Source: Candidatus Aquitaenariimonas noxiae | GTDB lineage: Bacteria; Omnitrophota; Gorgyraeia; Aquitaenariimonadales; Aquitaenariimonadaceae | Direction: 5' to 3' | Assembly (NCBI GenBank): GCA_002780005.1 | Contig: PEWV01000025.1 | Coordinates: forward strand, 25,150 to 89,149 | DNA: 64,000 bases | In this document: one piece after another, positions 508 through 50,400 of the stretch | Layout: every line of letters starts with the position of its first letter | Numbering within the stretch: the first letter of the stretch is position 1 | Position numbers and translations under genes: made by a program | Notes under the pieces: generated by a model | Told to the model about the DNA's origin: nothing | Databases searched by the model: none | What the model saw: the letters and a program-made list of their open reading frames with translations, nothing else

Positions 508-1038
508 TTACGCCTTTCCTATAAATTCAGCCTCTTCGTCATATCTTTGCCTCAATTCATCGCTCGTAAGCGGTTTCGCGCCTTCCTGGACGCTCAGAAT
601 AAGTTTCAAAATACCATTTTCTTCGCTTTCGGCGACGTACGGTATCGGCTCATGCGGCTTATTCAATAATCGCTTTAAAGCTAATTCTATTATTCTGGTA
701 ACAGGTATATATTGATTTAGACTTTCCCCTTCAATCACTTGGCTATCGTCTACAGAAACAATTTGAGCCTTACCGGCCAAAGAATCAAACATATGTTTCC
801 CCCTATTAGACTCTTTTACAACAGAGACGACCCTTACCTTTTTGCCTGCTTTTTCCGCATCTCTTATATAACTATTTACTCGCGCTGATAGTTCGGTGCC
901 ATCGCTTGCAATTACTACTAAATTCGAAAGGCCTTCTTGGTCTTTGAGTTCGGCCAATACTTTTAGCAGATTCGGGGCATAACTACCTAAATTTCCTATT
1001 GTCGTATCTATGCCCACTAATATCTCTTCGCCGTCCTC
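508..1038 (-). other. conserved C-terminal module (~175 aa) shared by the giant paralogs, copy 1
   Basis: EILVGIDTTIGNLGSYAPNLL..NLVVIASDGTELSARVNSY..KKVRVVSVVKESNRGKHMFDSL..QIVSVDD..YIPVTRIIELAL..KPHEPIPYV..ENGILKLILSVQEGAKPL..RYDEEAEFIGKA* is about 60-65% identical to the C-termini of the 11597..24508 and 24511..34656 proteins. Confidence 0.75.
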
Positions 1039-4000
1039 TTGCGCGGGTTTTGCCAGTCCTCTTAAACTGCTGACAAAGCTTCTAGCTTCTGCTGCTAAAG
1101 ACTGACCCTCGAATGCGCGGCACAAGGCATCGTATAAAACAGGTCCGTCCCGATAATGGTATTGGATACCCGATATCCCGGCTGATCTTGCGGTAGTTAC
1201 ATAATCTTCGACATCGTCTATAAAGACCGCGCGGTCAGCGCTCACGCCGGCCCTTTCCAATGCAGTTTCGAATATCCTTTTGTCAGTTTTCATGCAACCG
1301 ACATCGCATGAAGCAATAACGCCGTCGGCTATCCCGAAGATATCTTTGTATTTGGATGGCATATAGTCCCGATGGATCGGGTTTGTATTAGTAATAATAA
1401 ATATCTTATATCCTCTCTCTTTGAGCGCGGCCATCATATCTGCAACGGGCTGGTTCGCTTCGTATATATCTGAGAATATCGGCATAAATTCCTCAAATGT
1501 CATATTGAGGTTAAAAATCTTTTTCAGATTCTGGAAATATGCCTCAGGCGTTACCTGTCCGCTTTCAAATGGAACCAATATCTCATCGGAAAGTATTTTT
1601 TGATAAATAAAATCTTCCGTCTTGTCGGAATATTGCGCGAGAGCCCGCGTCGCTCTGTGGTAATCGACTTTTAATAATATATTACCAGCGTCAAAGAATA
1701 CGGTATTGACAGCTGCCGGAGCAGGAAATTCGTATGCAACCCGTGAACTCTCTGCCTGAGTTGCCAAAGCGCTGAAAGCACTCGTGTCGTTCACCTCGAT
1801 GCCCTGTGACGCCAGAATACGTTCAAAGCGTTTCAAGAATTCCATTCCCATTTCGGCGCGTGTCAGATTTGTATCGTTAGGTTCTCTCGGGTCAAGCTCA
1901 AAATACTTATCGCCGACAAGAAAATCGGCGAGGAACCTGTCGCACCAGGTATGATAATATTCCAATATATAGCGGTATGCATACCATTTCATGAGCCCTC
2001 TATCAATGCGATTAGTCTGGCCCAGTTCTATGTAACCATCTATAATGCAGTCCGCGAGATAATCAACAATACTCATTAAAAGTTGCGGGTCATCATTTAT
2101 ATCGCCATAATTCATCACAACCATATATGTCGTTGTGCGAATTGCGATAGCTAAATCATTAAAAAGTCTGGCCGGTTGAGTACTGTCCGGATCTAGCCAG
2201 GAAGCTACATATAATTCACCCGTATCGGGTTTTCTTTTAAAGATCGCGTTTTTAGGCCTCACATCATTATTATATATGCCGGTACCTATATTTACCTCGT
2301 TATCCGGAAGATAGCGCCTCGCATTAAGATCATCAAGGAGAGGAGATACGCGTTTTTCATATCCGGACATCCTATCTCGCTGCAATTCAACTTTTCGCGA
2401 CGAATCCTGGCTGAGACTTAATGTAACACGTTCGCCGCTTAGGACAGAATTCAGATACGACCAATGGTATTTAAGCGATGTCATGTTAGGCAGGGGCGTC
2501 ATCCATTGATCCGACTCTATTGAATTATACATATTATCTATTACAGCTATGGATCTGCCTATATTGTAAATCGCTGTAAGCAGGTCTCTTTCCGGAATGT
2601 CTTCTAAGGTGAGGTATGTTTCTATTTCACCCGGGATCCCCTTACTCACGCGCCATACAGCCCCATCAGCGTCGCGGTACAGCTTTGTTAAAACCCCGCT
2701 GCGACATGCGCTTTTAACATTAAGAAAATCTAATCGATCCCAGTCTTCCGGCAAGACTGTCTCATTCTGCAATCGTTCCAATAATTGTAAGTTATGATCC
2801 ATTGCCTCAACGTTAAAAACTGAGTTGATTTTCTGAACAAAATACTGATATTCAATGCCTTCCTCTTTAATAACCAGACGGTAGGTACGGTTGATAAGAC
2901 CGAATTCGATTGTTTGACATGTGCAATTTTGAGGTGAAGCCTCATATGTGTTTTCAAATGCGTTAAAAATATCCATTACTTCTTTTGCCTCAAGGGTCGG
3001 TGTAACAGCAGACGACTCAACGCCTGCCCTGCCTTCAACGCTCACTCCGGTTTCGGCATCGCGTTCGGCCTTTATGACCCTGCGCCTTGATTCCATAACT
3101 TTGAAAGCCGCTTCGCAAATATTCGGCAAGCCGGAAGCAGCAACGCCGTAAAACCCGTATTGCTGTATAAGAAGGCGAATAAAATAAGGAATACCCGGTT
3201 GCTGCATGTCTTCCTTTAATGCAGCTGACGAAAGGCCATCTATCGGATTTTGTATAGTTGCAAGTGGAATTACAGACTCTACGCTTTCAAGCCTCTTTTG
3301 CAATTCCTCACGGTGATTTTGCCGCGATATCAATGCGACACCAATGCTATGCGAAGGCGACAATCTTTGCTCCGTCACCAATGGTTCAAATCTCCGCCAT
3401 AATTCATCTCCGTACTCGTCGCCGCCGATGTAATATGCATTAACTCCTATATCAGGATTTACATCCAAAATCTCAGGAATATATTGAACGCTTGTATCGT
3501 CTCTTTTTGAGCCGATGGGTGAAAATTGAACGATCGGCGCAAGACGGCTTGTCATCGCCTCTATAAGGCCAAAACGAACTGATTCGCTAGACAATCCGGA
3601 TTTATATGTCGGGGCGCCTCGCGATATTATAATTAATTTATCCAATTTTAAATCAACTATACTTTGAAGCATGACTGCCAAATGACCCCAGTGCGGCGGG
3701 TCACCCGCGATCGGATAAAATCCCACGCGAAGCGGCCGGTCCGGCAAGGCGCCGGATATTACATTTGTATCAGGGTCAAAACTAATTTCGGGGTGTATTT
3801 CGCCGGATTCTATCAAGCCTTGGATTTGCGTCAATAATGCATTAATCGTTGTTTCTATTTCCGCTAATTTTTGACGGCCGGGCTCTGCAACTATAAGCCC
3901 TTCCAGTTCGAGGTCCAGATCGAAAATACCCGGCGCTAAAATCGAGGGCGCTGTTTTAGCGGCGCCTAAAATCTTACGGATTTCATCCGCCGCTTTACCA

Positions 4001-7000
4001 AGTTTCGCCCTATCGTAGCTCCAGTGCTGTAAAAGGCGGTCATTATCTATTTGTATATTACAAATTCTATTTAGAGTTTCTGCGTCTTGAATTTGAAAGA
4101 ATAATGGCGAGAGGCGATATTGCGTAGACTTGCCTGGCCTGGGCGGCTCGATAAGCTGAAGTATGCCTAGCCGCTCCAAGGCTCTTAATTCATTTGAGAT
4201 TGTGCTCCTAGCGTAAGGTTTACCCGTCTTAGAGTTTTCGCTTCTCCATTTTGGGACATCCGCAGTACCATTTATAGCGCTCGTAATCGTTATTGGTTTA
4301 TCTCTTAGGGTGTCCCTGCTACCAAACAAATCCCGCAGCGCTTCGGCCGGCGAGCCTTCAGGACCTTTCGCTTGCATGAACTTGCTTTGCACCTCGGCAA
4401 AAATCGCATAGGCGTCTTGTCCGCCTTCTAGCGCTAAATATTCATCATGCCGCTCTTCCATAAGGCCGTCTATTATTCTACGCGCCTCATCACTCACGCG
4501 ATTATATTTTTCATGCACTTCTGCGCTGAATTCTTCTTCTCTGCCCTTACTCCTTAAATCCATAAGGTCATTTGTAAATAATACCGGCGTAAAGAACGAC
4601 ATAGCATCCGCATCCCTTAAGACCGCAGAATCTTCTATTAAATGCGCCAGCGTAGCTTCTTGGGCCGGTAAGGGTTCAGGCATAGTGTCTTTTCTTATGC
4701 CTTTCTCGTGGTTTCGTATCAGCAAATCCACGTTCGCTATTAATCTTGGGTCTATTCCTAATAATTCCAATAGCGACCTTGCAAAATCTGCGGCCATACG
4801 GGGATGTTGTATCGGTTTATAATAATTCTGATGCCGCGGGCTATCAACCGGAGGCTCATCCTTGATCGCGACATAATACCCGTCAAAGAACCTGTCAGCG
4901 TCGTGCAGCATTGACGCGATCAATAATTCGGGCGATGGTTCGGCCGCTAGCCTTCTAACAACATCCGGGAGCGCCTGCATGTGAGGCGACATATTTGCCC
5001 TGAATAATGGGTCCGAACAATTGGTGATTTCGCATAATCTTCCCAATAACCATTCGACTTCACTGACAGCTTCATCGCCGGTTACAATTCGTTCTTCCCT
5101 GGCACTAACCTTTTCTTCTATTTCCTCTCTTAATTTCACAAGTTGCGCGTCAGAATCCTCTTTATTCGCGGGATCGGCAAAAGCTTCTTCGTATTTTACG
5201 CCATCTAGTCCAACCCCTATGGTAGACTGCACCGCATAAATACCTTCGATCGTAACTTCTGGCGCACCTTCAGGCACTTCAGCTTCACCTTCGATAGCTG
5301 CAGTTATCGTAGCATCAAGATGGTTCCCTGCCTTATCCTGGACCTCTGAGACCTCTCCGTTCTTTACAATTATGATAATTTCTTCATTTGCGTGCCCCGG
5401 CACTTTTATGCGTGAAGTTTTTCCTCCGGGCCCGACCTTGCCTCCTATATCTTTAGTCGCCATTGCGCCCAGGCGAACTCTTTTAATAATGTGATCTTTA
5501 AGTTCGGCAAGCTTCTCCGGTGAAAGCATCTCCCAAAAAGAATCCACTAATTGGCCTTCGGCATTATAAATGAGCGCAAAATTGCAAGTATCTAAAACCT
5601 CCCTACCGGCTCCTAATATTCTCACCTGAGTCACCACGCCATCGATCAAATCAATCTCGACCTCATGCCCTTTATAATTAGTAAACGCTGCCCAATGCTT
5701 GCCTAAATGCAAACCTCCGGAAACATCGTTCAGCCAGAAATGCTTAATAGTGCATGTCCCGAACTCTTTAAGGTCATCAATTGTATCTACCCGGAAAAAT
5801 GATGCCTTCAAATTACCTTCAGGGTCATAAACTAGACTATACCGCCTATCTTGTCCCTCGACTATATTACCTGCGCCATCGAGCAAAGTCGCCCTGCTCA
5901 CGATACCATTCTCAACGACAGTCAGGGCCCCTCGATGATCCGGATACTTATCTATCGGGTATTGTGAAAACACAACAGCGCCCTGGCCGGCTGGGCCGCC
6001 TAGATTTATTACGCCGGCCTTATTTAGTTTAAATCGTTTTATCGTAACATTTTTCAGGCTTAAATATGTCCCTTCTGCAAGCGTATCCCAGAAAGAATTG
6101 AACAATTCTCCTTTTTCGTCATACATAAGCGCAAACTCATGATCTTCGAGTAAGTTATCTTCCTCATCGTATATCCGCACCCTATCATATTGACCTTGGA
6201 TCACATCCAGCTCAACTTTCTTACTCTTATGTTTTGAGAAATGAGGAATAGGTTTTTTCTTTGCTCCTACCGCAAGATTGCCGAACTTATCCAGGCGTAA
6301 ACCCCTTATTGTAACACCGTCATATTCTTTAAACCTTGTAGAGCTGAGATTGCGAAGGAAGGAATCAACGAGTTTGCCGGACTTCTTATCGTAGACTAAG
6401 CAGAATGGCCGAGGAGTCCTTTCGCCTGTCTCTTCATTCACAAGTGTAACTTCCCAAATTTGGCCTTCTCTAACTTCGATAACCGCCTGGTGATATTTAT
6501 AACCTTCTCCCATCTTTACATTTCGTCCGCCTATGGTTAATGTACCATCTTCTTTAACATAGTGATCCCGGATCTCTACGTTGTTCAATTTAGCAAATTC
6601 CGGTTTTTCGATCTTTCCATGGAACGTCTTCACCAATGTTCCGTCAGGCCTATATATAGTACCCAACTGAATGAATTCCACCAATTTGTCACTATCATCA
6701 AATATCCACACCCTATAAGGATGGCCTTGGAGGACTTCGAACTGAACTTTATGTCCAGGATAGTTGCCGAATCTGAACACGTCTACGCCCCCGATACCCA
6801 ATTCGCCTTGCGGTTTTAAATTATTTCCTGTAATGACTACTCCATCATCCAAAGTCGCTAATTGCTCTATGGTGAATTGATCCGAATTGGCAAAGAGCTT
6901 TTTCCTGCTTGAAAGAAGCGCTTGAGCTAAAACCAATCTTTCTTCCTCAGGTGCGGAAAGTATGCTCTGCACCGTAGGAGCCGTTGCTACTGTGGGAACT

Positions 7001-10000
7001 GTTACCGCATCCATGTACAGAGTCATATCAGGGGCGGCAGTAACCGCTTCCATCTGCGATGTTGTAAATTCAGTATCTATCCAGCCCAGGGTAAGGTTAT
7101 ATTTTGCCTCGAGGTATGGCACGAGGGCATAGAGTTCGCCCGGTTTATTAATATCTAGGCGCCGGGTCATTTCCAGCTGGCCTTGGCGGCCTGTAAAATT
7201 TGCCGGCACTTGAGCCAGCAACGCTTCCAGCCTATCCAGTCTTTCAACAGTACACCTTATATCGTGCCAACCGTATTCGCTTATAAACTCAGGTTCGCCG
7301 AATATTCTATACATGTCAGCTAGATTGCTTACGTGGACAGTTTTCGCGACCTCTATCATCCCGGCAACACCCCTATAAGAAGCAGGGGCTGCCTCGAGCA
7401 TGTCCTTTAAATCCCAGAATTTTATCCAACCGACCTGTTGGATCTGGATACCCAAACGACTGCGTACCTCTCTTGAAAGCCTTTCGCAAATCTTGGGGCT
7501 CGCTAATATCTGTGCCCTTCCAAGCCTTATATAACCGCGCTCCACGGCAAGCTCAATATCTCTGGCCAGATAAAAACCTGACTGGCGGCCGGTATATAGC
7601 TCGAGGTTATTCAAATTTTTCAGATCTATCTGGCCCCATCGTGTATTAAACACCTCTCTACCGTCAGGAACTATCACCCTTTCCCCGTGTTCCATTGCCT
7701 GCATTAATTCGTCCAGGCTGTAAACACGCGCCTTGGCCCGGCGTTCATTTATCGCCTGACTAAGGTCTTGGGTAGCGAAACTATTCTGCCGCAATCCTTG
7801 AATATAATTTCTTGCATGCGCAAGAATTAATTTCTTTTCTCCTGCCCCGAAATTGATCGTTAAAACCCTCTCCTCGCCTTTGCCTTCAACGCTGATTATC
7901 CGCCCTTCGCCGTAATGCAGATGCCATATCTTCTGGCCCGGCAAGAGAAGCGGCGGCAGCCTGTTTCCGTGCCTTTGTGTAAATTCCTCCCATTCCCTAT
8001 CAAGCTTTCCCCGGCCCCGGGTACGGGCCGCATTTTCGACTAGTTCCTGCGCATATCTACCAGGCTCGGGTCCGGAATAGTCTGCCATTGTGCGCAATAT
8101 AGAAGATGCCTGCCACGGGTTAATAATTTGTAAATAAACGAAGCGCTCTAATTCCGCGGCGTAGGCTTCATAATCAAAACGTTCAGGAAAACCTACCTCT
8201 CCACCTGTTGTTTCTTCAAAAACGCTAAATTCTCCGCGAGTCAGCTTTCCCTCATGCGCCGAAAGCTTTAGATTCGCCCTGCGTTCGGCCAAGCCTAACT
8301 GTTGATTTATATAGCTTCTTATGCACTCCCGCAATAGCCCTTCATTTTCGTATGGGCCTTGGTAATTTTCAGGGAAGGCCTTTTTTTGGATCTCGCGGCA
8401 GGCCTCGTGGTCGTAAAACGATTCTAGCGCTTCGTGTAAAAGATATTCGGCAACTAAAGAAGTTTTAGTTTCCCCGGAGCTATAACTTTCCACATGCGAA
8501 AGATATCGCACGAAATCTGCGGCATAGCCTAACATCACCCGCTGGCCGCCTAATCTTTCGCCATTCATTGAAATATTTCTTAAAAGCGGGGCGTGTGAAT
8601 TAAATCCCAATACAAAATTATCTTCCTCTGGCGGGATATCCCTTGAGGTAATAATAACAGACCCGAATTCATACATATTTTTAGGTATAAGAGTCATCAT
8701 AATTCCATTTATCTCGTCTTCGCTCAAAAGTCCTTTGAGGCGCGCCCTTATAAATCTGCGCAGATTGTTTAACGGAATATTGGTGTGCCTAAAATTAAAA
8801 GGTTCTATGTCCCCGTTTTCTATTATGCTTTGCAATTCTTCAAGCGCGATCTCGCCTTTTAAAATATATCCGCCGGCAGTATCAGCAGGGCCTGTTGCCT
8901 GGCCCTCCATACCAAGGAGAGGAACAAACCTGTATTCCATGATCTCCCGCGCTAACATAACCGTCTCCTCGCCTGACTCGTCTTCTTTTGCTCTCTTCTG
9001 TATTAAATTAAGAGTGCCTCTTCCGGTTTTTCCTGTAATGGGTATAACTATAGCCCCACCGTCTTTAAGCTCGTCTCTCAAGGCAGCCGGTAAACGGGGC
9101 GCGCCTGCTGTAACCATTATTCCGTCAAAACTCATTTCTTCTCTGAAAAGCGGAGCGCTTCCGTCCCCTACAATAACGTGCACATTATTCCTGCCGGCCC
9201 TGGTTATATTCTTATGGGCATCCTTAGCAAGGCGCTCCAGGGTCTCAACCGTATAAACCTCTTTCACTAAAGATCCTAAAATAGCTGCCTGCCAACCGCT
9301 GCCGGTCCCAATTTCTAAAATAACCGCATTTCTATAATCAGGAATGTTCTCGATTAAGAGCGCTGTCATTTCTGCAACCATAATAGGGCTGGAAATTGCC
9401 TGCCCTGGTAGCGGAGAACTTTCATAAGCAGAAGCTATAAGCCCCGGAGGAATAAAATTGTGGCGCCTATTCTCCATCATGGCATTAATAACATCTCTCA
9501 CTATATCTTCCCTGTGATTTCTCTTTAAGAGTTCCTCCTTTATGCTTGCATAAAGCATCGCCTCTTTACTTTGAAGTTCTTCTTCAGTCATATCTCGGCT
9601 GGCCATCAGTTTATGGGTCACTGCTTCTGAAACAAGTCCAAAAGCTGGTAAATGCGTAACTGAATCTTGCAAAGAGGTTATATCGCGTGACATACTGTCT
9701 ATTCTTGAGATAAGAGGAAGGGTGTGTTCGCCTCCTCTTCTTACAAGGATCCCCCTTGCAGCATTAAAGCCAACTGTCAGCGTACTCATGCAGGATAAAA
9801 ATGCCTCGCCACTCCAGCGATTTAAGCCCTCAATCTTTATTCCGCGAAGATCTTGCAACACGCGGCTGATTAATGTCAATAATGCCCTTATTTGAGGAAT
9901 CCCGGCATCGCCGATATCAGCTGATAAGGTTTCAATGTTTTGGATTAAATTTCTTACAGCCTCCTCGGCTTTAGCTGCTTCCCCTCCGGGCCCTTTTTCG

Positions 10001-11595
10001 GCAGGCTGGGTTGTCCTGTCAGATGCCGAGACAATCCCGGTATCGGGAAGCTGGGCCTGGCTAGCCTTAAGCATTGCTCGGGCCTGGGCCACCTGGGCAG
10101 TTACAACTTGGGGATCAGCAACAAATCTGGGATTAAGACCAAATGCAGACTGTTTTTCTTCACGCATACCCAAAAATGCGAGGTATCGCCCTATTGCATA
10201 ATAATTTGGCTTTTCTTCATATCTGAGATGTTCCCTGTGAAAATCCCTTACATGGCCTAGGTACGGCCGATCAAAGCTCAGCATATCTCTTTTAAGGAAA
10301 AATCTCATAGCAAGACTATAGGTGCCATCCTGGCTGTCTCGATCCTTTCTATTTACCAGCTCTTCAACGAGAAGCATGGCTGCCTCTAGATGAGTAGCTT
10401 TTATCTTATGTGTCGCCGCATAATCAAGAATAAACTGTTTCAGCGCCTTCCTTGCGATCAAGGTCGCTACCATCTCGCTATTTACTTCAGGAAGAACGGC
10501 TTCGCCCCTTGCCTGCATGATCAAACGCATCTGGTGAAGTTTCAATTCAACCAGTTCGTGTATTATCTCGTGCTCTATAAATAAGGAGGCGGCTGCCTTG
10601 AGAATTTCAGGATCGCTGGCTGCTTCAATTAAATCCGTCGAAAACCAATCATATATCTCTCTAGTCTCTTCGTATCCGCTCGTCCGCATATCATCAAAAT
10701 AGGAAAGCACAGAATCTACTGTATTTGTTGGAATATGTTCGCCTCCTGCTATTCCTGATAATTCATCCAATACATCTTTTAAATGTTTATTCACAATTAT
10801 GCGCTGGCGTGTAATATCGGCATTATTATTTAAAGGGTCTGTAACAGAAACAGCCGTAACATTCATGCCTTCTCCCCAGACTACATCAAGACTAGCTCCA
10901 TCAGCGTAATAATCTGCATATACAGCATTCTCCCCCCGGTCTCTCGATACTAAAATATCCCACATAAGCCCGACCGATGAACGTAAATACATGAAATCCA
11001 GATCTACAGCCAATACCGCATCCAGTTTTCTGTGAATTTCGGCAACTATTTCCTGCTCGACGGGTTCATCGGTTTCTCTAAATCTTAAATTTGCTTTTTC
11101 ACCGCCTGTTTCATAACCTCTTTGAGAACCTGATGCTTCGGCATGACCTGTATCTTCTTCCGCATAGGCCTGAACGGGCCTAAATATATGTTTTCCGTCT
11201 GCGTCATAACCTATAAGGTATACCCCACCGCCTAAATCTGGATGCAGTGTAACTTTGAAACAGTACCCTTCTCCCGGTACTATCTCAATACCCTGCAACT
11301 TATCAGCATTTTCACCTACATAGGCACTAAGCTGCTCTAATGCCTGGGCTTGAGGGACTCCTTTGTCATGCTGAGTCTTTACTATCTCGCAAAGGATAGC
11401 GACCGAACTATACGCAAGAGGCCTGTCTCCTAATGCTTCTACAATTTCGTCAGGGCAGAATGTGGTAGGCTGTTTTAGGCAAAAAGCTGTCTCCGGGTGC
11501 GAAACCCCTGCGAAGCTTATATTCTGGCAAAGGAATATCCAGCTTGTTATTAAAGCTACTATTTGTATAAGTTTTTTCTTTCTCATGCGAATCAT
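508..11595 (-). CDS. giant (3695 aa) secreted multidomain protein with PCMT-like methyltransferase, five beta-rich repeats, HD phosphohydrolase, wHTH-like module, HxGH nucleotidyltransferase, HAD-like hydrolase and the conserved C-terminal module
   Basis: Uninterrupted 11,088-nt ORF with ATG at 11593-11595 and TAA at 508-510. N-terminal Sec-like signal peptide (LIQIVALITSWIFLCQNISFA|GVS). Motifs read directly: HEIIH (aa ~342), VILEIGTGSGWQAAILG (aa ~758-775), LHDADRFF (aa ~2230), GDPPHWGHLAV (aa ~2631-2641), KIFIITNT and VFIDDVEDY (aa ~3397-3465). No obvious TM helix after the signal peptide. Confidence 0.85.
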   Translation of the reverse strand: MIRMRKKKLIQIVALITSWIFLCQNISFAGVSHPETAFCLKQPTTFCPDEIVEALGDRPLAYSSVAILCEIVKTQHDKGVPQAQALEQLSAYVGENADKLQGIEIVPGEGYCFKVTLHPDLGGGVYLIGYDADGKHIFRPVQAYAEEDTGHAEASGSQRGYETGGEKANLRFRETDEPVEQEIVAEIHRKLDAVLAVDLDFMYLRSSVGLMWDILVSRDRGENAVYADYYADGASLDVVWGEGMNVTAVSVTDPLNNNADITRQRIIVNKHLKDVLDELSGIAGGEHIPTNTVDSVLSYFDDMRTSGYEETREIYDWFSTDLIEAASDPEILKAAASLFIEHEIIHELVELKLHQMRLIMQARGEAVLPEVNSEMVATLIARKALKQFILDYAATHKIKATHLEAAMLLVEELVNRKDRDSQDGTYSLAMRFFLKRDMLSFDRPYLGHVRDFHREHLRYEEKPNYYAIGRYLAFLGMREEKQSAFGLNPRFVADPQVVTAQVAQARAMLKASQAQLPDTGIVSASDRTTQPAEKGPGGEAAKAEEAVRNLIQNIETLSADIGDAGIPQIRALLTLISRVLQDLRGIKIEGLNRWSGEAFLSCMSTLTVGFNAARGILVRRGGEHTLPLISRIDSMSRDITSLQDSVTHLPAFGLVSEAVTHKLMASRDMTEEELQSKEAMLYASIKEELLKRNHREDIVRDVINAMMENRRHNFIPPGLIASAYESSPLPGQAISSPIMVAEMTALLIENIPDYRNAVILEIGTGSGWQAAILGSLVKEVYTVETLERLAKDAHKNITRAGRNNVHVIVGDGSAPLFREEMSFDGIMVTAGAPRLPAALRDELKDGGAIVIPITGKTGRGTLNLIQKRAKEDESGEETVMLAREIMEYRFVPLLGMEGQATGPADTAGGYILKGEIALEELQSIIENGDIEPFNFRHTNIPLNNLRRFIRARLKGLLSEDEINGIMMTLIPKNMYEFGSVIITSRDIPPEEDNFVLGFNSHAPLLRNISMNGERLGGQRVMLGYAADFVRYLSHVESYSSGETKTSLVAEYLLHEALESFYDHEACREIQKKAFPENYQGPYENEGLLRECIRSYINQQLGLAERRANLKLSAHEGKLTRGEFSVFEETTGGEVGFPERFDYEAYAAELERFVYLQIINPWQASSILRTMADYSGPEPGRYAQELVENAARTRGRGKLDREWEEFTQRHGNRLPPLLLPGQKIWHLHYGEGRIISVEGKGEERVLTINFGAGEKKLILAHARNYIQGLRQNSFATQDLSQAINERRAKARVYSLDELMQAMEHGERVIVPDGREVFNTRWGQIDLKNLNNLELYTGRQSGFYLARDIELAVERGYIRLGRAQILASPKICERLSREVRSRLGIQIQQVGWIKFWDLKDMLEAAPASYRGVAGMIEVAKTVHVSNLADMYRIFGEPEFISEYGWHDIRCTVERLDRLEALLAQVPANFTGRQGQLEMTRRLDINKPGELYALVPYLEAKYNLTLGWIDTEFTTSQMEAVTAAPDMTLYMDAVTVPTVATAPTVQSILSAPEEERLVLAQALLSSRKKLFANSDQFTIEQLATLDDGVVITGNNLKPQGELGIGGVDVFRFGNYPGHKVQFEVLQGHPYRVWIFDDSDKLVEFIQLGTIYRPDGTLVKTFHGKIEKPEFAKLNNVEIRDHYVKEDGTLTIGGRNVKMGEGYKYHQAVIEVREGQIWEVTLVNEETGERTPRPFCLVYDKKSGKLVDSFLRNLSSTRFKEYDGVTIRGLRLDKFGNLAVGAKKKPIPHFSKHKSKKVELDVIQGQYDRVRIYDEEDNLLEDHEFALMYDEKGELFNSFWDTLAEGTYLSLKNVTIKRFKLNKAGVINLGGPAGQGAVVFSQYPIDKYPDHRGALTVVENGIVSRATLLDGAGNIVEGQDRRYSLVYDPEGNLKASFFRVDTIDDLKEFGTCTIKHFWLNDVSGGLHLGKHWAAFTNYKGHEVEIDLIDGVVTQVRILGAGREVLDTCNFALIYNAEGQLVDSFWEMLSPEKLAELKDHIIKRVRLGAMATKDIGGKVGPGGKTSRIKVPGHANEEIIIIVKNGEVSEVQDKAGNHLDATITAAIEGEAEVPEGAPEVTIEGIYAVQSTIGVGLDGVKYEEAFADPANKEDSDAQLVKLREEIEEKVSAREERIVTGDEAVSEVEWLLGRLCEITNCSDPLFRANMSPHMQALPDVVRRLAAEPSPELLIASMLHDADRFFDGYYVAIKDEPPVDSPRHQNYYKPIQHPRMAADFARSLLELLGIDPRLIANVDLLIRNHEKGIRKDTMPEPLPAQEATLAHLIEDSAVLRDADAMSFFTPVLFTNDLMDLRSKGREEEFSAEVHEKYNRVSDEARRIIDGLMEERHDEYLALEGGQDAYAIFAEVQSKFMQAKGPEGSPAEALRDLFGSRDTLRDKPITITSAINGTADVPKWRSENSKTGKPYARSTISNELRALERLGILQLIEPPRPGKSTQYRLSPLFFQIQDAETLNRICNIQIDNDRLLQHWSYDRAKLGKAADEIRKILGAAKTAPSILAPGIFDLDLELEGLIVAEPGRQKLAEIETTINALLTQIQGLIESGEIHPEISFDPDTNVISGALPDRPLRVGFYPIAGDPPHWGHLAVMLQSIVDLKLDKLIIISRGAPTYKSGLSSESVRFGLIEAMTSRLAPIVQFSPIGSKRDDTSVQYIPEILDVNPDIGVNAYYIGGDEYGDELWRRFEPLVTEQRLSPSHSIGVALISRQNHREELQKRLESVESVIPLATIQNPIDGLSSAALKEDMQQPGIPYFIRLLIQQYGFYGVAASGLPNICEAAFKVMESRRRVIKAERDAETGVSVEGRAGVESSAVTPTLEAKEVMDIFNAFENTYEASPQNCTCQTIEFGLINRTYRLVIKEEGIEYQYFVQKINSVFNVEAMDHNLQLLERLQNETVLPEDWDRLDFLNVKSACRSGVLTKLYRDADGAVWRVSKGIPGEIETYLTLEDIPERDLLTAIYNIGRSIAVIDNMYNSIESDQWMTPLPNMTSLKYHWSYLNSVLSGERVTLSLSQDSSRKVELQRDRMSGYEKRVSPLLDDLNARRYLPDNEVNIGTGIYNNDVRPKNAIFKRKPDTGELYVASWLDPDSTQPARLFNDLAIAIRTTTYMVVMNYGDINDDPQLLMSIVDYLADCIIDGYIELGQTNRIDRGLMKWYAYRYILEYYHTWCDRFLADFLVGDKYFELDPREPNDTNLTRAEMGMEFLKRFERILASQGIEVNDTSAFSALATQAESSRVAYEFPAPAAVNTVFFDAGNILLKVDYHRATRALAQYSDKTEDFIYQKILSDEILVPFESGQVTPEAYFQNLKKIFNLNMTFEEFMPIFSDIYEANQPVADMMAALKERGYKIFIITNTNPIHRDYMPSKYKDIFGIADGVIASCDVGCMKTDKRIFETALERAGVSADRAVFIDDVEDYVTTARSAGISGIQYHYRDGPVLYDALCRAFEGQSLAAEARSFVSSLRGLAKPAQEDGEEILVGIDTTIGNLGSYAPNLLKVLAELKDQEGLSNLVVIASDGTELSARVNSYIRDAEKAGKKVRVVSVVKESNRGKHMFDSLAGKAQIVSVDDSQVIEGESLNQYIPVTRIIELALKRLLNKPHEPIPYVAESEENGILKLILSVQEGAKPLTSDELRQRYDEEAEFIGKA
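1156..1713 (-). other. HAD-superfamily hydrolase-like domain in giant gene 1 (aa ~3295-3480)
   Basis: FFDAGNILLKV (motif I-like), KIFIITNT (motif II), K..IF (motif III Lys) and AVFIDDVEDY (motif IV) in canonical order. Confidence 0.45.
3196..3738 (-). other. cytidylyltransferase-like (HxGH) nucleotidyltransferase domain in giant gene 1 (aa ~2620-2800)
   Basis: VGFYPIAGDPPHWGHLAVM..LIIISRG resembles the NadD/TagD/CoaD G-x-F-x-P-x-H-x-G-H signature. Checked at 3681-3718. Confidence 0.5.
4696..4998 (-). other. HD-domain phosphohydrolase-like region in giant gene 1 (aa ~2200-2300)
   Basis: LIASMLHDADRFF..H..Y..IQHPR..RNHEKG with H...HD...H...H spacing. The HD codons were verified at 4900-4905. 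Confidence 0.5.
5416..6765 (-). repeat. five tandem ~90-aa protein repeats (beta-rich, unknown function) inside giant gene 1 (aa ~1611-2060)
   Basis: Recurring pattern hhxVxhxxG...VxIxD.....h......FxLhYD..GxLhxSFxxxL in segments starting NYPGHKVQFEVLQG, YHQAVIEVREGQ, KKVELDVIQGQY, HRGALTVVENG and GHEVEIDLIDG. Each ends near LVYD..G.L..SF. Confidence 0.6.
8926..9498 (-). other. protein-L-isoaspartate O-methyltransferase (PCMT)-like domain inside giant gene 1 (aa ~700-890)
   Basis: SAM-binding motif I ILEIGTGSGWQAAIL, followed by VHVIVGDG and FDGIMVTAGAP, in the order and spacing typical of Pcm-type class I methyltransferases. Coordinates were checked codon by codon against the DNA at 9361-9405. 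Confidence 0.6.
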
Positions 11596-11596
11596 T

Positions 11597-12136
11597 TTAC
11601 GCGTTTCCTATAAATTCTGCCTCTTCGTCATATCTTCTTCTTAATTCCTCTTCGCTCAAAGGTTGCGCAGGAGGCAGCATAATAAATTTCAATATTCCAT
11701 CCTCTTCCCTTTCTTCAACGTAAGGAATCGGCTCGTAAGGCTTATTTAAAACCCTCATTAAAGCGCATTCAACGATTCTTGTTATCGGAATAAATTGGTT
11801 GAGCGTTTTTCCGTCTTCGCTCATTATTCTCGTATCATCTACCGAGATAATCTGAGATTTGCCTTCTAGCGAATTAAACATGCGCTTGGCCCTATTGTCT
11901 TCCCGCACAATAGCTGCAGCCCTTACCTTCCTGCCTGCCCTTAAAGCATCTTCTAAGTATGCATTTAAATGCGCCGAGAGGACATTTCCTTCACCTGCAA
12001 TCACGGTTAAATTATCCAACCCTTCTTTTTGTCTAAGCTCAGTCAATATTGTAAGTAAATTCTGCGCATAATCCCCAAGATTGCCTATTTCCGTATCAAT
12101 GCCTACCAATAGCTCCTCGCCATTATCTTTAGCTTC
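11597..12136 (-). other. conserved C-terminal module, copy 2
   Basis: EELLVGIDTEIGNLGDYAQNLL..NLTVIAGEGNVLSAHLNAY..KVRAAAIVREDNRAKRMFNSL..QIISVDD..FIPITRIVECAL..KPYEPIPYVEEREEDGILKFIM..RRYDEEAEFIGNA*. Confidence 0.75.
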
Positions 12137-15100
12137 CTTGGCTAGTGCCCGTATATTCTCGACAAAACGTTCGGCTTGAATCCTACCCGGTTCTGCTTTC
12201 CCTTCAACTTGAGGCAATATAATCTTAAATGTAGTTCCTACTCCGGCTTCAGTATCAACATCCATATCTCCTCCGAAACTTAAGGCGAACTGGCGCGATG
12301 TAGCAAGGCCGTGGCCTTTTGATAAGATACCTGTGTCTTCCTTATCGCTGGAACCTCTCACAAAAATAGCTTTTGTTTCAGTTTGGGTCTCAGGATCCAA
12401 AACTTTTTCTAACATCTCGGGTTTTCTTATGCCGCCGGCATCATCTTCCACTTCTATTAAGACCTGGCCATTAGACGGCTTTAGCCTAACAGTGACCTTA
12501 TGCTCGGCTCCGGCTTCGACATACCTGGGTATATTGGTCAAGAGGTTGCTTAAAATACGCCTCAAGCCTCCGCGGCTTGCCTTCACAATAAGCCCTTCCT
12601 GGGGCTTCTCAAAATATATACGAATATTTTTATCGTGAAATTCCTTGCCTCTCGCTTGCAGGAAACCGCCAAGGAAGGCGCCTAGCTCTATATTTTCCAT
12701 TACATAACTATCCAGCATGTCAAGCCCTGATTCGGCAAACTCAAGCGCAGCCGCCGAGAAATCGCCTTCAAAGGATTCTCTGCATATCTCAAGAACAGAA
12801 GGATCTGTAATAGCATCCAGCCTGGTTGGGTTTTCTGTAAAATAAACTTTCACCGCGCCATATGCCTGCCTTAATTCATCGGCAAACGCCTTGCCGTCTT
12901 CTACGACTGCATTCCAATCACCTGTCTCGCGGCCGTGGTAATAAGGCCTTTTTCTCTCCTGCTGTGTAACTTTTATGCTGTCAAGCAGCGTATAAACTGC
13001 CATGAATTTTTCTTTTTCGCTCGCATCTGCATCCGGCCTTAGATTATCTTGCACATAAGCTAACCAGCCATAGAGCTCTGTCATCGGCTGCAGCACATCA
13101 TGAATAAAAGCGACCATCTTCACGGATTCCTCTGTTGGCTCAACAGTTACGGCCGGCTGTCCCAATGGGGCCTTCGCACCTTCTGCAGTTCCTTGAGTGT
13201 GCATAAGCTCGCTCCGTATAGACTGAAACACTGCAAGCGTCTCTACACCTTCCTTACTCTGCCTGAAGGTTTCTTCTCCCGCAGCCACAAAGGCATCTGC
13301 GCGAATCTTGTCTTCCGGAACAAGGCGCGCGTATTTATACCTTATCATAGCGTTGCCTTCGCCTTTTCCTTTGTCACGTTCGAGCAGAATATAGGAATTT
13401 ATTAGAAGTTCGGGTATAAATTGAGAAATAGAATCTGCTCTTTGCAGGAGATTCATATCCGAAGCTGCCTCCTGCTGGAATCCATTTTCCGCAGCCACTT
13501 CTTCTGTAATACCCGTCTCATGACGCAAGATAAGTATTTCAACGTCCCCTAAGACTTTATCGCTCACTCCTGCTTCTCTAAGCCACTTCAAGGCGAAATT
13601 CGCTGACAATCTCGGATGCTGATTTGATTTGTAATGCAAGTATTGAGGGGTACCGCCTTTAAAGCCATCGGACGGGTGCACGTAATAACCCTCAAAAAAT
13701 CTGTCAATATCGTGGAACAATCCGGCAATAAGAGCTGCCGGATCAGCTGAAGGATCAATCTCCCTGATGATCCCTGGTATAGATCTCATGTGTGGCGGCA
13801 TATTCCTAATAAAAAGTTCGTCTCTGCAGTTTTTATTGGCGTCCATCCAATCGAAAAGCCATTGGGCTTTTTCGGGATCTGTCATCTTATTTAAATTTGT
13901 TCGGTTTTCTTCAATAGCCGTTCGTAACCTTCCCAGTATCTCATCGGATTCTTGCCGATGTGTTATATCTATTGGTGCTGTGCACCTCATATGTTCCGTA
14001 ATTTTGTCTCTGGCCATAGCCAGCCTACTTTCACTATACGTACAGTGCTGCATTACATAATCGCCTTCTACGTCTATATCGCAGATTCTATCCACAAGTT
14101 CTTCGTCCTGTATCTGGAAAAATATATTAGTAAGATAATATACGTTTGGTTTCCCGCGAACCGGCTCTCTGGGCTCGCTGTCAGGTGCATCCTTTATTGC
14201 AAGAAAACCTAAGCGGCGAAGAGCTTCGAGCTCATTCGCTATTACAACTCGCGCATAAGGCTTGCCTGTCCTTGTATTTTCCCGTCTCCATTCACCTTGC
14301 GCGCTTCGTACGGTTATTGGGTTAATCCCTATCTGACTCCTGTGAGCGAATAAATCGCACAGGGCTTCTGCAGGCGAGCCCTTAGGCGAAGCTAGGCCGG
14401 AAAATGCTGTAGTTACGCCATGCCACCCTTTCTTCGACTCAGCTGTTATTACGGGTGCCGGTTGGGTTGTAGTAGAAGAATCCGGAAGAGTACTCTGACC
14501 TAAAATTTTGTCAACCATTTGCCGCAAAGCATGCACTTCTTCTGCCTGTAATTTGCTCACCTCATCATAATGTCTCAAAGGCTGACTGCTTAGCCTAGAC
14601 GACCTCTGTAAGGACGGAGCATCGATCCGAATATTACAAAGCCGGTTAACAAGATAACGCGGCATTTTTCCCTTCAACTCTTTCCTCAGACTTATCTTAT
14701 GCGTTGACGAGTTTCTATCTATATTGACTATTCCTGCCTCCTCTAGATTTGCTATTTCAATTCTGACCGTTTCGTAACTGAAAACCCCCTCGCCGAAATT
14801 CTCCTGGTTCTTAAAACGCAATTGTTGCAATTCGCTGATCGTTAAAGCTCCTCCGCTTTTAAACCTGGTTGCCAAAACTTGTAGCTCAGGAGTAGGCCAA
14901 TCTTTGGTCAAAAGAATAGACTTCAAAAATTCAGCCGGCGAACCTTGCGGATACGTACGGTGTGCGGCTGCATAAGGCGGTTTGGATTCAACATTAATAA
15001 TATAAGAGTAAAGATTACCCCAATAGGCTTTGACTACAATATGGTAGATAAGATAGTCTTCGACCTTCATACCTAAAAGATCTTCTAATTCTACCAGACC

Positions 15101-24510: not shown

Positions 24511-25059
24511 TTAGGCTTTTCCTATGAATTCCGATTCTTCCATATACCTTCTTTCAAGCTCTTCTCTTTCAAGCGGTTTTGCATCTTCCTGCACACTAAG
24601 TATAAGTTTTAAAATACCGTCTTCCTCAACCTCTTCAACGTATGGAATCGGTTCATGAGGCTTGCTTAGTATTTTCGTCAAGGCGCGCTCTATTATTTTA
24701 GCGATTGGAATATAGTAATTCAGGCTGCCTGTAAAGTTATCTATAACACGACTATCATCAACTGAAACAACTTGAGCTTTATCGACTAATGATTTAAACA
24801 TCCTTTTCTGCCTATTGTCCTCTTTCACTATAACTACTGCCCTAACCGTCTTACTGTCCCTTTGCGCATCTGAAAGATATGTATTTAATTGGGCCGACAG
24901 AATAGTTCCCTCACCGGTAATGACCCTTAAGTTTTCCAATCCCTCTCGGTCTTTAAGATTAACCAATGTCTCAAGCAGGCCTGGCGCATAATCTTTCAGA
25001 TTTCCGATTGTCGTGTCTATGCCCACTACTAATTCTTCGCCTTTATCTTTTGCTTCTTT
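24511..25059 (-). other. conserved C-terminal module, copy 3
   Basis: EELVVGIDTTIGNLKDYAPGLL..NLRVITGEGTILSAQLNTY..TVRAVVIVKEDNRQKRMFKSL..QVVSVDD..YIPIAKIIERAL..KPHEPIPYVEEVEEDGILKLILSVQEDAKPL..RYMEESEFIGKA*. Confidence 0.75.
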
Positions 25060-28000
25060 GGCTAAAGATCTCAAGCTAGCCACTAAGCGCACAGCTTCTT
25101 CTTGAGACGGTTCCATGCTTAGCGTAGGCATTCCTGCTATCATATCTTCTTCTTTTGGCAGAATGACTTGCGCTTCTTGCTCTACCGTCTTTACCTTTCC
25201 AATAATATGATCTACTTTAGCCCGTAATAGTTCTCTCTCCTGGTCGGTTAGCTTGCTTACTTCATCATAGTGCCTTAATGGTTGGTCTGTGAGACGCGCA
25301 GAACGCTGTAGGGACGAGGCTTCGATCCTGATATTGCAGATGGCTTCAACAATTTCCCTGGGCGGAGCCCTTGCTAATTCCGGCCTAAGCGTTACTTTGT
25401 GCACTTTATCTGCCCTGTCGATGCTTACTATACCAGCTTGTTCGAGGTTTGATATTTCAACTCTCACTGTTTCGTAACTGTAGGTCCCTTCGCTAATATT
25501 ACTTGGGTTCTTAAGTCTTAGTTGCTGCAATTCAGCTATTGTCAGGGCCTCGCCATTCTTGAACCTCGTAGCCAGCTCTGTCAGTTCCGGCGTTGGCCAG
25601 TCCTTGGTCAGAAGCAAAGAATGCAAGAATACGGCCGGCGAGCCGTCGGGCGTAAACGGAATATGCTCTATTCGCAAGAAATCTTCTGCAATTCTTTCGA
25701 TCGCAGACATTTTATCTTCTATATTTTCTTGGCACATTAGAGGGTCTTTCGCATCTATGATATCTTGCGGCACCTCTATTAAAAGCGCCCACTCTGAACT
25801 GAATCTGCTTCCATCATATTCACTCGTCCTGACCACTTCAACGCCATCTAATCCATTTAACTCATCTATAAAACGTGTAAAATTAGGGTTCGATTCGTCG
25901 GCTTTAAAAGAAACATATAGTTTATTATTGCTCGGAATGTCCGCGCTGCTGGTCTGCTTGTCACTTTGAAGTTTCCTAAAATACAAATCAATTCTTTCTT
26001 GCGGTGCTTCGCCAGAATATGAATACAGTTCTAAATAAGCTCTAGGGGTCGGGGCATCGGCCCATGTAGTATAAATAAATGGCAAAGCATTAAGCCTTCC
26101 CACAACACCATTAATATCTCGATCCTCTCCCTGGAGAGCGTCGTCTGACCACCCGTTTGTAACCATCAAGGCACTATTAACATCTCCGGGATTAAAAATT
26201 ATACCATATCTATCCTGTTCTTTTCGTTCCGCAAAATTTCTAGGGCCGTCTATATATACTCTTATTCTATCCCTTAACAGGCCCTCCGGCTTGCCTTCAG
26301 GGTAGTTGGCCGGAAAGAAAACGATCTGTAATGCCCTTGCAGCTTGATGCCCAAAATGACGGCAAAGGATTTCATGTAAGATATATTCTCCTTTTAATGG
26401 CCATGGTAGTGTTCCTAGAAAATCACGTGAATAGTAAATTGCTGGGTTTTCTGCATCATCTAACTTATTTTGCCCAAGCGCAAAATCCTGACTGTTCTCA
26501 ATTTGCGAAACGACTTCTCTTAAAGTAGCGTTTGGTAAATCATATAATAACGCTAGAGATAATTTATTATTATCAGGCGCAATAAGATCACCCCAAATTC
26601 TTGCAAACAATCCTGGCGCTTCCTCTTGAGATATAGGAGGTGTGGCGCCTTCCTCGTAATATTCGGGGTTTGACAACCTATCGATCGCGCTTCTCAATGA
26701 CACATCGGAAATCTCAGAATTGTTAATTTCTTCAATTACAAATTCCTTTAAACCATCTTCTAGTGGTCTATATTTTCTTTCTGCAATATCTTGATTCATT
26801 CTCTCAAGAGCTATATGCCCCTGCGCTATGTAACCATCGGGTGTGGTCTTAGGCGCAGCAGGCAATGTCGGGGTCGCGCCGGGCATTCTACCCGGAGTTT
26901 TCTCTTGCCCCAGAGGTGTAGGCGTCACTGTCGCTGCAGTCGCCCCCGATGGCTCTGAAAGCACCTCTAAAATATCATAAAATCTTGTCACAACGTCATC
27001 ATAGTCTGATACGACTGCTTCGCCATAACCCCATGTATATCTGCTCTTGTACGTTTTACGCACTAACATCACATCTCTTATAACGTCAAAGTTCCACCAT
27101 TCTGCGTTTGGATCATCTGATTGCATCAATCTTATATTGTAAGCCGGAGTTCCTCCTCCGCCTACATATGCTGCATAGCTGAATCTTGTGACATTCCGCG
27201 CGCCGCCCTTTGCTGATATTCCCCCCATATAAGGAGCAAGATCCTCACTATCCCTTACCATTTTCATCTTTCTTGTGACAACACAAATACTCTGAATAGG
27301 ATCATAAGGATCATATTCTCCGCTCAAAACGCCTTCAGCCTTAAGCCCATCAAATATCTTTCTATAATGATCCGCTTCTTCATCCCCGTCTAATAATTGA
27401 GCGATACCCCTGGCGTATTTTCCTGAAGAATCCAACGTTGTGGCTTTCGGGCCGCTAGAGTTAAAGCTATCGGTTTCATAGAATAATAATCCAAGAACCC
27501 TATTAAAGGGAATATTATCCTTTTCCTGGCCTGCTAAGAATTTAAATTTGTTCAAAAATCTTGCCATTAGCTCGTTCCTTTGCGCTTCTGTCATGTTGCT
27601 GAATTTAGGATCGGCAAATACTTTTCGTGCAACTGCATTCAATACAGCATCCCGGTCCATGTGCGCCAAATACACGTATCTGAGCGTCCTATAAAGGCGT
27701 TCTTCTGATCTCAATGTAATACGTATTTTTCTGTCCTCAGGTTCTGCTATATCAAACTTGTCTGAATATTTACGCGCCGCAAGATCTAAGAGATTTGCGC
27801 GCAATTTATCGGAAGTCCACCCCATATACTCAGGCCTTGAAAATCTTACGATATCCATGAGTAAGTCAAGATCCTCCTGTTCAATATAAGCCTCTATGTA
27901 AGGATCGACAAATGTTCCGTATATCCTGTTTCTAAAGTCATCGCTTCTCATGCCGATCAATAGCGGTTTTATCCTATTTATTTTAACGCTTATAGCCTGA

Positions 28001-36895: not shown

Positions 36896-38050
<1,155 letters not shown>

Positions 38051-38053
38051 TTA

Positions 38054-38113
38054 GTGGTCAAGTGATTAGTGATCGAGGGCACTTGACCACTCGGCCACTT
38101 GGCCACCTTGCAC
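38054..38113. repeat. intergenic repeat array (queA-tgt gap): 12-bp inverted repeat AGTGGTCAAGTG / CACTTGACCACT followed by CGGCCACT-TGGCCACC units
   Basis: Read from sequence at 38054-38065 and 38080-38091 (16-nt loop). Related GGCCAC(T/C) units continue up to the queA stop. Confidence 0.6.
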
Positions 38114-39136: not shown

Positions 39137-39168
39137 ATCGGATTAATGATGTCCAAGAATAATCTTTG

Positions 39169-39399
39169 TCACTTGCGGTTTATTAAGAAGAGTATAAGCG
39201 TAAAAATAATGCTTACAATGATCGAGGTGGCAAGCGGAAAATAAAAAGTAAAATTCTTCTTCTGAACATATATATCACCCGGCAATTTGCCGACCCATGG
39301 GATTTTCACTCCCAATACAAATATTATGCCGATAACTACCAAAATCATCCCGAATAAAATAAATGTCCTTCCGAGCATGCCCATTCTTAGACCTTGCAC
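39169..39399 (-). CDS. DUF2905-family small membrane protein
   Basis: 76 aa with two TM segments and a GKLPGDI motif. Confidence 0.6.
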   Translation of the reverse strand: MQGLRMGMLGRTFILFGMILVVIGIIFVLGVKIPWVGKLPGDIYVQKKNFTFYFPLATSIIVSIIFTLILFLINRK

Positions 39400-39935: not shown

Positions 39936-39963
39936 TGTCTTTTTCCTATGCTTCGGCTCATCT

Positions 39964-39998
39964 CACTTGACCACTAACCACTCGACCACTCGACCACT
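39964..39998. repeat. intergenic repeat array (ruvB-queH gap): CACTTGACCACT followed by AACCACT-CGACCACT-CGACCACT
   Basis: Read from sequence. It has the same 12-mer and orientation as the 38054-38113 array and lies immediately 3' of the ruvB stop codon. Confidence 0.6.
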
Positions 39999-40002
39999 TC
40001 TT

Positions 40003-41037: not shown

Positions 41038-41039
41038 AG

Positions 41040-44394: not shown

Positions 44395-44410
44395 TTTCCG
44401 CCTCCTGCGT

Positions 44411-45040: not shown

Positions 45041-45053
45041 TTTATATATAATC

Positions 45054-47114: not shown

Positions 47115-47116
47115 TT

Positions 47117-50398: not shown

Positions 50399-50400
50399 AT

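Follow-up and report, generated by a model that had tools for sequence, protein, structure and literature searches.

Open reading frames (ORFs) exceeding 20 kb occur in most classes of the Omnitrophota and have obscure functions, and a giant protein of V. archaeovorus is 3-fold up in attached cells (Seymour et al., PMC10066038). West-Roberts et al. reported proteins of up to 85,804 amino acids (aa) from this phylum, with many transmembrane (TM) helices and with SecA-DEAD domains; one type in this set, "Archaeovorin," abounds in methyltransferases, glycosyl-active enzymes, peptidases, and NUDIX domains, and most giant-protein domains were predicted to be extracellular (10.1101/2023.11.21.568195). 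Nielsen & Lui catalogued 916 Omnitrophota proteins of at least 10 thousand aa (kaa), 94% of them with a signal peptide (SP) or TM segment and 9-13% with an SP only; internal repeats in these proteins are ancient and diverged, their flanks are enriched in type II secretion system/type IV pilus (T2SS/T4P) genes and glycoside hydrolases, and the largest co-occurrence module ("Module 1") combines methyltransferase, HATPase_c, GNAT, HAD, and HD domains (bioRxiv 10.64898/2026.06.07.730766). The present study concerns g1, a gene in a 64,000-nucleotide (nt) stretch of contig PEWV01000025.1 from Candidatus Aquitaenariimonas noxiae (hereafter the window). The gene is intact, and its product is a modular multi-enzyme chain that belongs to the "very long protein" class of Omnitrophota.

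The g1 frame has an ATG start, is uninterrupted over 508..11595 on the minus strand, and encodes 3,695 aa; every long ORF of the window lies on that strand. By exact look-up the product is identical to PIU41963.1 (locus COS99_02515), annotated "hypothetical protein" in the groundwater metagenome-assembled genome (MAG) Candidatus Omnitrophica bacterium CG07_land, which is Ca. Aquitaenariimonas noxiae (Omnitrophota). The neighboring g2, Tgt, RuvB, and RecJ are assigned to the same MAG. Across the last 6,704 nt of g1, the window agrees exactly with two independent assemblies, and the ORF is therefore not an accident of assembly. A scan of a genome collection with g1 found no relative. A phage or mobile-element origin of the locus was rejected, as it lies among housekeeping genes of the chromosome, in DNA of uniform composition.

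Together, g1 and its neighbor g2 reproduce exactly the Module 1 set (PCMT, HAD, and HD in g1; GNAT, methyltransferase, and HATPase_c in g2). Given this, the Omnitrophota genome established by the match to PIU41963.1, and the leader-bearing architecture, g1 is a smaller representative of an already described, functionally unsolved class of long proteins, not a new kind. Like the published giants, it is a divergent multi-enzyme mosaic with an N-terminal leader, large unannotated stretches, and diverged internal repeats. At 3,695 aa, however, it is well below the lengths that Nielsen & Lui (at least 10,000 aa) and West-Roberts et al. (>30,000 aa) took into account, and its operon partners g2 and g3 are, like g1, smaller than published giants (3.4-4.3 kaa each). 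The giants are TM-rich, as are g2 and g3, which have a leader and many TM segments, but g1 has no TM helix beyond its leader and falls in the SP-only class. Further differences are the absence of glycoside hydrolase or glycosyltransferase content, the distribution of the domains over five coupled ORFs with shared terminal modules, and flanks of DNA-repair and tRNA-modification genes in place of T2SS/T4P. Pfam scans of g1, g2, and g3 found no SecA-DEAD domain and no N-terminal C39 or S8 peptidase.

Catalytic domains of the g1 product

The variable cargo of g1 includes four apparently intact catalytic domains, as judged from profiles, predicted fold, and motifs: PCMT-type, HD-fold, NadD-like, and YihX-like (Table I). 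All four had been proposed in an earlier note on this DNA, which regarded them as normally cytoplasmic enzyme types, and all four are borne out, on evidence of differing kinds; every recognized g1 domain is cytoplasmic in type.

The PCMT-type S-adenosylmethionine (SAM) methyltransferase matches Pfam PF01135 (E 9e-35; 120.8 bits against a gathering score of 20.3), NCBIfam (E 1e-45), and Pyrococcus furiosus PIMT (PDB entry 1jg1, E 2e-28). Its SAM motifs EIGTGSG, VGDGS, and VTAGAP (motifs I, post-I, and II) are intact and align with those of 1jg1. The domain scores below the NCBIfam Pcm equivalog cut-off (155.5 < 188), and its substrate is consequently not assured. The HAD-IA phosphatase domain matches the glucose-1-phosphatase model of NCBIfam (E 2e-28) and, across its full length, the sequences of YihX crystal structures (E 1e-21 over 180 aa). 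HAD motifs I-IV are present as FDAGN, ITNTN, K3436, and FIDD, and the unusual DxGN form of motif I is common to g1 and YihX; the score is again below the equivalog cut-off (99.6 < 295).

The HxGH nucleotidyltransferase (NTase) is divergent, with weak sequence support. It reaches 24.5 bits with PF01467 (cut-off 21), passing only when the segment is scanned alone. It is closest to NadD enzymes (E from 3e-4 to 6e-6), including the NadD structure 4wso (E 3e-4). A candidate for the second ATP motif (ISxxxxR, SxxxxR), placed by eye outside the alignments, is LSSAALK at aa 2788, with Lys replacing Arg.

For the HD module, the evidence is a predicted all-alpha HD fold and a metal-binding motif, not a profile. 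Residues H2205, H2231-D2232, H2264, H2296-E2297, and D2328 (D2328/D2330 in the g1 module) are invariant in four to five homologs. No match of g1 to Pfam HD (PF01966) was found, and one homolog reaches E 0.19; three of four homologs give a weak DUF4202 match (best E 7.6e-4). As a profile search of PDB sequences with the module returned nothing significant, the assignment was made from structure prediction, by which the module is a divergent member of the HD phosphohydrolases, by fold rather than profile. It recurs elsewhere fused to a GHMP kinase and receiver domain (P0028), and near the end of a >2,043-aa protein (L006). The earlier idea of an HD and NTase pairing for nucleotide-signal turnover finds no support: the two are kept apart in g1 by a linker and the 140-aa module, the HD module travels independently (P0028, L006), and the order is permuted in g2.

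The four domains share folds and catalytic or cofactor motifs with stand-alone Pcm (PIMT), NadD, YihX, and YpgQ/2pq7-type HD hydrolases. Unlike these enzymes, they are fused into one 3,695-aa chain behind a leader, and all score far below NCBIfam equivalog cut-offs, for example those of Pcm and YihX.

A PcrA/UvrD-type Tudor domain, absent from the earlier note, was also identified. An HEIIH motif noted previously is indeed present, but the zincin reading attached to it is not borne out. The expected number of HExxH motifs in g1 by chance is 0.13, with 11% of shuffles containing one, and aa 150-690, around the motif, have no Pfam, NCBIfam, or PDB match. A zincin metalloprotease was accordingly rejected, for want of a profile match, a conserved homolog, and a motif above chance level. 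Further segments without a Pfam or NCBIfam match are aa 32-686, 899-1219, 1260-1585, and 2830-3290, and the C-terminal module. A conserved module of approximately 140 residues is possibly winged-helix-like; a profile search of PDB sequences with it gave nothing significant. Within aa 2830-3290, NDVRPKN (aa 3110) is followed 17 residues on by WLDPD (aa 3133), the pair spanning aa 3110-3137 (window 2185-2268). Judged by eye only, these motifs recall the catalytic loop and the metal-binding Asp of a protein-kinase-like enzyme and serve as a lead. A kinase domain was not accepted on such motifs; the 460-aa region has no profile or PDB match.

A tandem beta-repeat family

The central part of g1 is a tandem array of approximately 87-residue, beta-rich units. 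The earlier note described five units, each ending LVYD..G.L..SF. The array is real and the same, in a register slightly different from that of the hidden Markov model (HMM) units, but the count is six, the sixth being truncated (aa 1586-1672, 1673-1760, 1761-1849, 1850-1947, 1948-2034, and 2035-2105). Identity between units is 24-35%. An exhaustive search of 1.84 billion representative proteins with a 12-unit profile identified 103 proteins (protein clusters) with E <= 1e-3, of which 67 reach E <= 1e-10, and the family thus comprises at least 103 clusters. A local count gives 499 units in 106 proteins. Most repeat-bearing proteins are of 1.5-7.6 kaa, with up to 19 units each; the matches with named sources are three Omnitrophota and one Endomicrobiales.

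The statement that the repeat belongs to no known family also holds, as neither a Pfam or NCBIfam family nor a solved structure was matched. The g1 units themselves have no Pfam match, and of 38 unit pairs, three to four give DUF6174/DUF4245 matches, all sub-threshold. An AlphaFold model of two units, built on a 38-sequence alignment, is confident (pLDDT 94.7, pTM 0.88) and predicts an all-beta unit with a short C-terminal helix. Its Foldseek matches are not significant. The nearest candidates (the small beta-barrel of IstA/TnsB/MuA DDE transposases, DUF6174, and DUF4245) cover only part of the 87-aa unit and have no detected sequence relation to it, and no known family forms tandem arrays of this kind. 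Because of the profile matches, the lack of Pfam coverage, and the confident model, the array is regarded as a real, unannotated repeat-domain family for which the predicted fold has no solved counterpart.

Its distribution marks the array as a mobile module. P0001, a 629-aa stand-alone array protein from another metagenome, corresponds to g1 aa 1518-2116 at 53% identity. Elsewhere the array is combined with internal ECF sigma-70 domains, SAM methyltransferases, DHDPS, and HEAT repeats, or occurs in proteins named DEAD-box helicase, PLP enzyme, and TPR/RelE. Complete ECF sigma-70 domains lie mid-protein between repeat arrays in P0030 (aa 889-1070, E 3e-16) and P0034 (aa 1807-1984), proteins of 2.3-2.7 kaa, the latter without any hydrophobic segment. 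The rigid g1 array is most likely a spacer or binding scaffold.

The five-gene operon

The g1 gene is the third of five co-directional genes (order g3, g2, g1, p4, p5) separated by gaps of 1-6 nt or a 4-nt overlap, the left flank of the window having been read from a contig of the same population (L003). Their products total 13,579 aa and, by sequence, are mosaic paralogs, a feature missed by the earlier note. Their general build is a Sec-type leader, an N-module, variable cargo, and a 195-aa C-terminal module (C-module). Leader and N-module A are shared by g1 and p4 (56% identity), and leader and N-module B by g2 and g3 (68%). The C-module is 50-64% identical across g1, g2, g3, and p5 (511-1089, 11600-12178, 24514-25098, and L003:12740-13309, respectively), and is the best-conserved part of all four; it has the consensus end EFIG(K/N)A and an alpha/beta look by sequence pattern. 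A word-indexed search with its profile returned only a g1 fragment. Cargo is shared in different arrangements: the 140-aa module is present in g1, g2, p4, and p5, the HD module is found in g1 and g2 in reversed order relative to it, and the aa 902-1106 module of g1 recurs in g3.

The g2 protein comprises leader B, GNAT, approximately 17 TM segments (17-18, an uncertain count from a hydropathy plot), SAM methyltransferase, the 140-aa module, an HD-like module, HATPase_c, and the C-module, and g3 comprises leader B, pseudouridine synthase, HEAT, TM segments, and the C-module. The listed TTG start of g3 probably precedes the true one by about 65 codons: N-terminal homology to g2 sets in at ORF residue 77, with the leader at residues 75-95 (window 34400-34656). 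A sigma-70-like promoter match lies between recJ and g3 (34784-34756, minus strand). Downstream, p4 has a leader without a C-module, and p5 (P0029, 1,103 aa, overlapping p4 by 4 nt) has a C-module without a leader. By sequence, the two look like one gene of approximately 2,200 aa split by a frameshift, the split being seen in several independent assemblies. The end of p4 and the start of p5 carry the same XRE-like helix-turn-helix-type repeats (L003:6711-13312).

At the g2/g1 and g1/p4 junctions, the conserved last codons GAA TTT ATA GGA AAx GCG TAA place AGGAAA 8-13 nt ahead of the next ATG, with 1 or 6 nt between stop and start (window 11596-11612 and 499-512). This is a probable Shine-Dalgarno site and would fit translational coupling. 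Such an overlap suggests a second constraint on the conserved C-terminal codons.

Table I. Features of g1 and of the adjoining operon genes (positions in the window; aa numbering of g1 unless stated)
Feature	Position	Strand	Evidence or remark
g1, complete ORF, 3,695 aa (PIU41963.1, COS99_02515)	508..11595	-	translation and exact look-up
Sec-type leader, aa 1-29	11509..11595	-	hydropathy; 56% identity with p4 leader/N-module
N-module A, aa 30-148, with post-leader motif FCLKQP	11152..11508	-	common to p4
HEIIH motif, aa 342-346, attributed to chance	10558..10572	-	shuffling test
PCMT-type SAM methyltransferase domain, aa 687-898	8902..9537	-	Pfam, NCBIfam, PDB
Unnamed module, aa 902-1106	8278..8892	-	common to g3 (aa 2601-2812), P0063, P0120
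PcrA/UvrD-type Tudor domain, aa 1220-1259	7819..7938	-	27.3 bits against cut-off 23.9
Pre-repeat segment, aa 1533-1585	6841..6999	-	also precedes arrays in P0001, P0035
Six tandem beta-rich repeat units of ~87 aa, aa 1586-2105, last truncated	5281..6840	-	alignment and HMM
HD-fold module, aa 2150-2411	4363..5148	-	structure prediction and conserved residues
Conserved ~140-aa module, aa 2412-2552	3940..4362	-	common to g2, p4, p5, P0087
NadD/cytidylyltransferase-like NTase, aa 2616-2800, HWGH at aa 2635	3196..3750	-	profiles, PDB
Region without profile or PDB match, aa 2830-3290	1726..3108	-	motifs by eye only
HAD-IA phosphatase domain, YihX-like, aa 3296-3480	1156..1710	-	profiles, PDB
C-terminal module, aa 3503-3695	511..1089	-	common to g2, g3, p5; ends EFIGKA
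AGGAAA, 8 nt before g1 ATG, inside g2 C-terminal codons	11604..11609	-	probable Shine-Dalgarno site
g2, 4,303 aa	11597..24508	-	profiles and hydropathy
g3, ORF of 3,381 aa	24511..34656	-	profiles and hydropathy
p4, 5' part, leader and N-module A, 167 codons of 1,097 aa	1..501	-	ATG 6 nt after g1 stop

Upstream of g3 lie RecJ, YajC, Tgt, QueA, QueH, RuvBAC, and YebC, most of them in a housekeeping block (36896-42888) on the strand of the long-gene operon (tgt, queA, and queH of the queuosine pathway, ruvB, ruvA, ruvC, and yebC). Beyond p5, L28 is encoded on the opposite strand, followed by RecG. An exopolysaccharide/capsule cluster occupies 43066-61943, comprising a TPR protein, an initiating sugar transferase, a GH53/39-like hydrolase, an epimerase/dehydratase, GT2 and GT4 transferases, a B12-radical SAM enzyme, a Wzy-like polymerase/ligase, a Wzz/tyrosine-kinase, and a Wza-like exporter, and is followed by EF-G (62108-63955).

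Location of the chain and its possible action

In the g1 leader, the n-region is MIRMRKKK (+5), the h-region is LIQIVALITSWIFLC, and the c-region is QNISFA/G. In a crude Kyte-Doolittle plot, aa 9-29 are the only uncharged hydrophobic stretch of the chain, which agrees with the earlier reading of a signal peptide and no TM helix. All four leaders of the operon have a basic n-region, an h-region of 15-22 residues, and a small-x-small site (SFA/G, GVA/E, AYA/D, and LYA/N); as these features are kept in leaders of two unrelated N-module types, they are under selection. A lipoprotein signal was rejected, since the Cys of "IFLC" follows bulky residues and precedes more hydrophobic residues and an AXA-type site. 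Within approximately 35 residues past the leader, an L-[R/K/Q]-(Q)-P motif occurs in 13 of 51 leader-bearing relatives, compared with 2.6% of random windows, the pattern having been chosen post hoc, after the data had been viewed. Its sites include g1 aa 37-44 (window 11464-11487), the L008 ORFs, L006:6143-7708, P0044, P0063, P0092, and P0130. The motif may be a lineage-specific sorting feature, read by a dedicated sorting step. L006:6143-7708, from another metagenome, is the gene after a long ORF bearing the HD module and encodes a 521-aa protein with a signal-type leader and, by eye, a P-loop guanylate-kinase-type domain, which would be another "cytoplasmic" enzyme behind a leader.

It can be proposed from these features that the leader would bring the chain to the Sec translocon and that the body, having no further TM helix, would cross the inner membrane, as expected from the +5 charge before the helix. 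The shared terminal modules might then let the operon products be sorted or co-assembled at the cell envelope, and the enzyme modules could act at that site or within an attached host cell, a setting that offers SAM, ATP, and nucleotides. Export of the operon proteins, with action at the envelope or in an attached host, is the reading we favor, at about even odds; the whole-chain export put forward in the earlier note is drawn only from the leader and may be overstated. An exported g1 would resemble MARTX- or SidE-like multi-effector proteins and would fit the predatory or parasitic lifestyle inferred for these organisms. The likeness does not go beyond architecture and fold: Pfam and NCBIfam scans found neither the glycine-rich A/B/C repeats nor the autoprocessing cysteine protease domain of MARTX toxins, and, in contrast to MARTX and Legionella SidE, g1 lacks mART and DUB domains and has no type I or type IV secretion signal or genes.

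A number of observations weigh against export. Every recognized g1 domain needs SAM, ATP/nicotinate mononucleotide (NaMN), or phosphorylated metabolites, and partner proteins carry GNAT, HATPase, and RNA pseudouridine synthase domains. Modules of the g1 type occur in relatives with neither a leader nor a hydrophobic segment (P0001, P0034, and P0062), the repeats of P0034 and P0062 being accompanied by an ECF sigma domain or by the name DEAD-box helicase. The window contains neither secretion nor pilus genes, unlike the surroundings of published giants. The C-module has no relative in Pfam, NCBIfam, PDB sequences, or genome or metagenome scans, and because no relatives are detectable outside the operon its role is a guess. 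Approximately 45% of the chain is without a domain assignment in profile scans, and the leader was called by hydropathy plot together with the -3/-1 rule rather than by a trained predictor.

Several of these points would suit a membrane-tethered cytoplasmic enzyme scaffold, in which the N-terminal helix does no more than anchor the chain, or cannot translocate so long a body, and the enzymes would act at the cytoplasmic face. Housekeeping and regulatory activities (protein repair, NAD synthesis, and nucleotide/sugar-phosphate hydrolysis) would then be held in fixed stoichiometry in an ultra-small cell, beside the TM-rich g2 and g3. Like export, this reading would reconcile the leader with the cytoplasmic enzyme types. 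The cytoplasmic type and cofactor needs of all g1 domains, the homologous modules in leaderless proteins with ECF sigma, DEAD-box helicase, and RelE-type annotations, and the leaderless stand-alone array of P0001 all point this way, and West-Roberts et al. themselves write that some of the extracellular placements predicted "seem highly unlikely" (10.1101/2023.11.21.568195). However, a charge of +5 before the helix and a net negative charge after it predict an N-in/C-out orientation under the positive-inside rule, cleavage-type sites are retained in all four leaders despite their two unrelated N-module types, and the conserved motif past the h-region looks like a sorting feature; a tethered scaffold is possible, and we consider it rather unlikely. 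The chain might instead be a polyprotein, a precursor cut into separate small enzymes whose fusion has no scaffold meaning. Modules do occur as separate proteins elsewhere (P0001, P0027), and C39 and S8 peptidase domains have been proposed to process other Omnitrophota giants (10.1101/2023.11.21.568195), but profile scans found no peptidase domain in g1, g2, or g3, the HEIIH motif is at chance level, and no repeated cleavage-site-like linker was seen, which makes processing of this kind quite improbable. Least credible is a decaying or mis-assembled ORF, from a chimeric contig or pseudogene, with the domains as mere relics. The MAG origin of g1 and the apparent frameshift between p4 and p5 could be cited in its favor, and we give it almost no weight in view of an 11-kb frame that is open and identical in independent assemblies, intact catalytic motifs, and repeat and HD modules kept at 50-56% identity in other organisms.

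It is tempting to extend the export reading further, such that the five-gene operon encodes a Sec-exported "cytoplasm-in-trans" of multi-effectors that are sorted by L-[R/K/Q]-x-P, joined via the 195-aa C-module, and delivered into an attached host. This is a speculation we think unlikely. If it is true, host metabolism and host gene expression would be reprogrammed by the protein-methyltransferase, NAD-pathway NTase, HD, and phosphatase modules, along with those for acetyltransferase, pseudouridine synthase, and nucleic-acid binding, and the repeat array would be a rigid spacer or host-binding rod.

Novelty at the level of the g1 protein is modest, as its sequence is already public and its class has been described. 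New items are the repeat-domain family, the divergent HD module, the private C-module, and the leader motif in a coupled five-gene operon, and these by-products, with the locus itself as a compact model, are worth more than the g1 protein. Omnitrophota are abundant, ultra-small, and probably host-dependent, and the location and function of their giant proteins are a recognized open problem. The locus is a compact, fully assembled version of the giant-protein architecture at 3-4 kaa, in which the question of "inside or outside?" becomes experimentally tractable, with domains small enough to express, a leader that can be tested for export, and a well-modeled repeat domain. Profile models of the repeat family, the divergent HD module, and the terminal modules could annotate part of the "dark" sequence of the giants.

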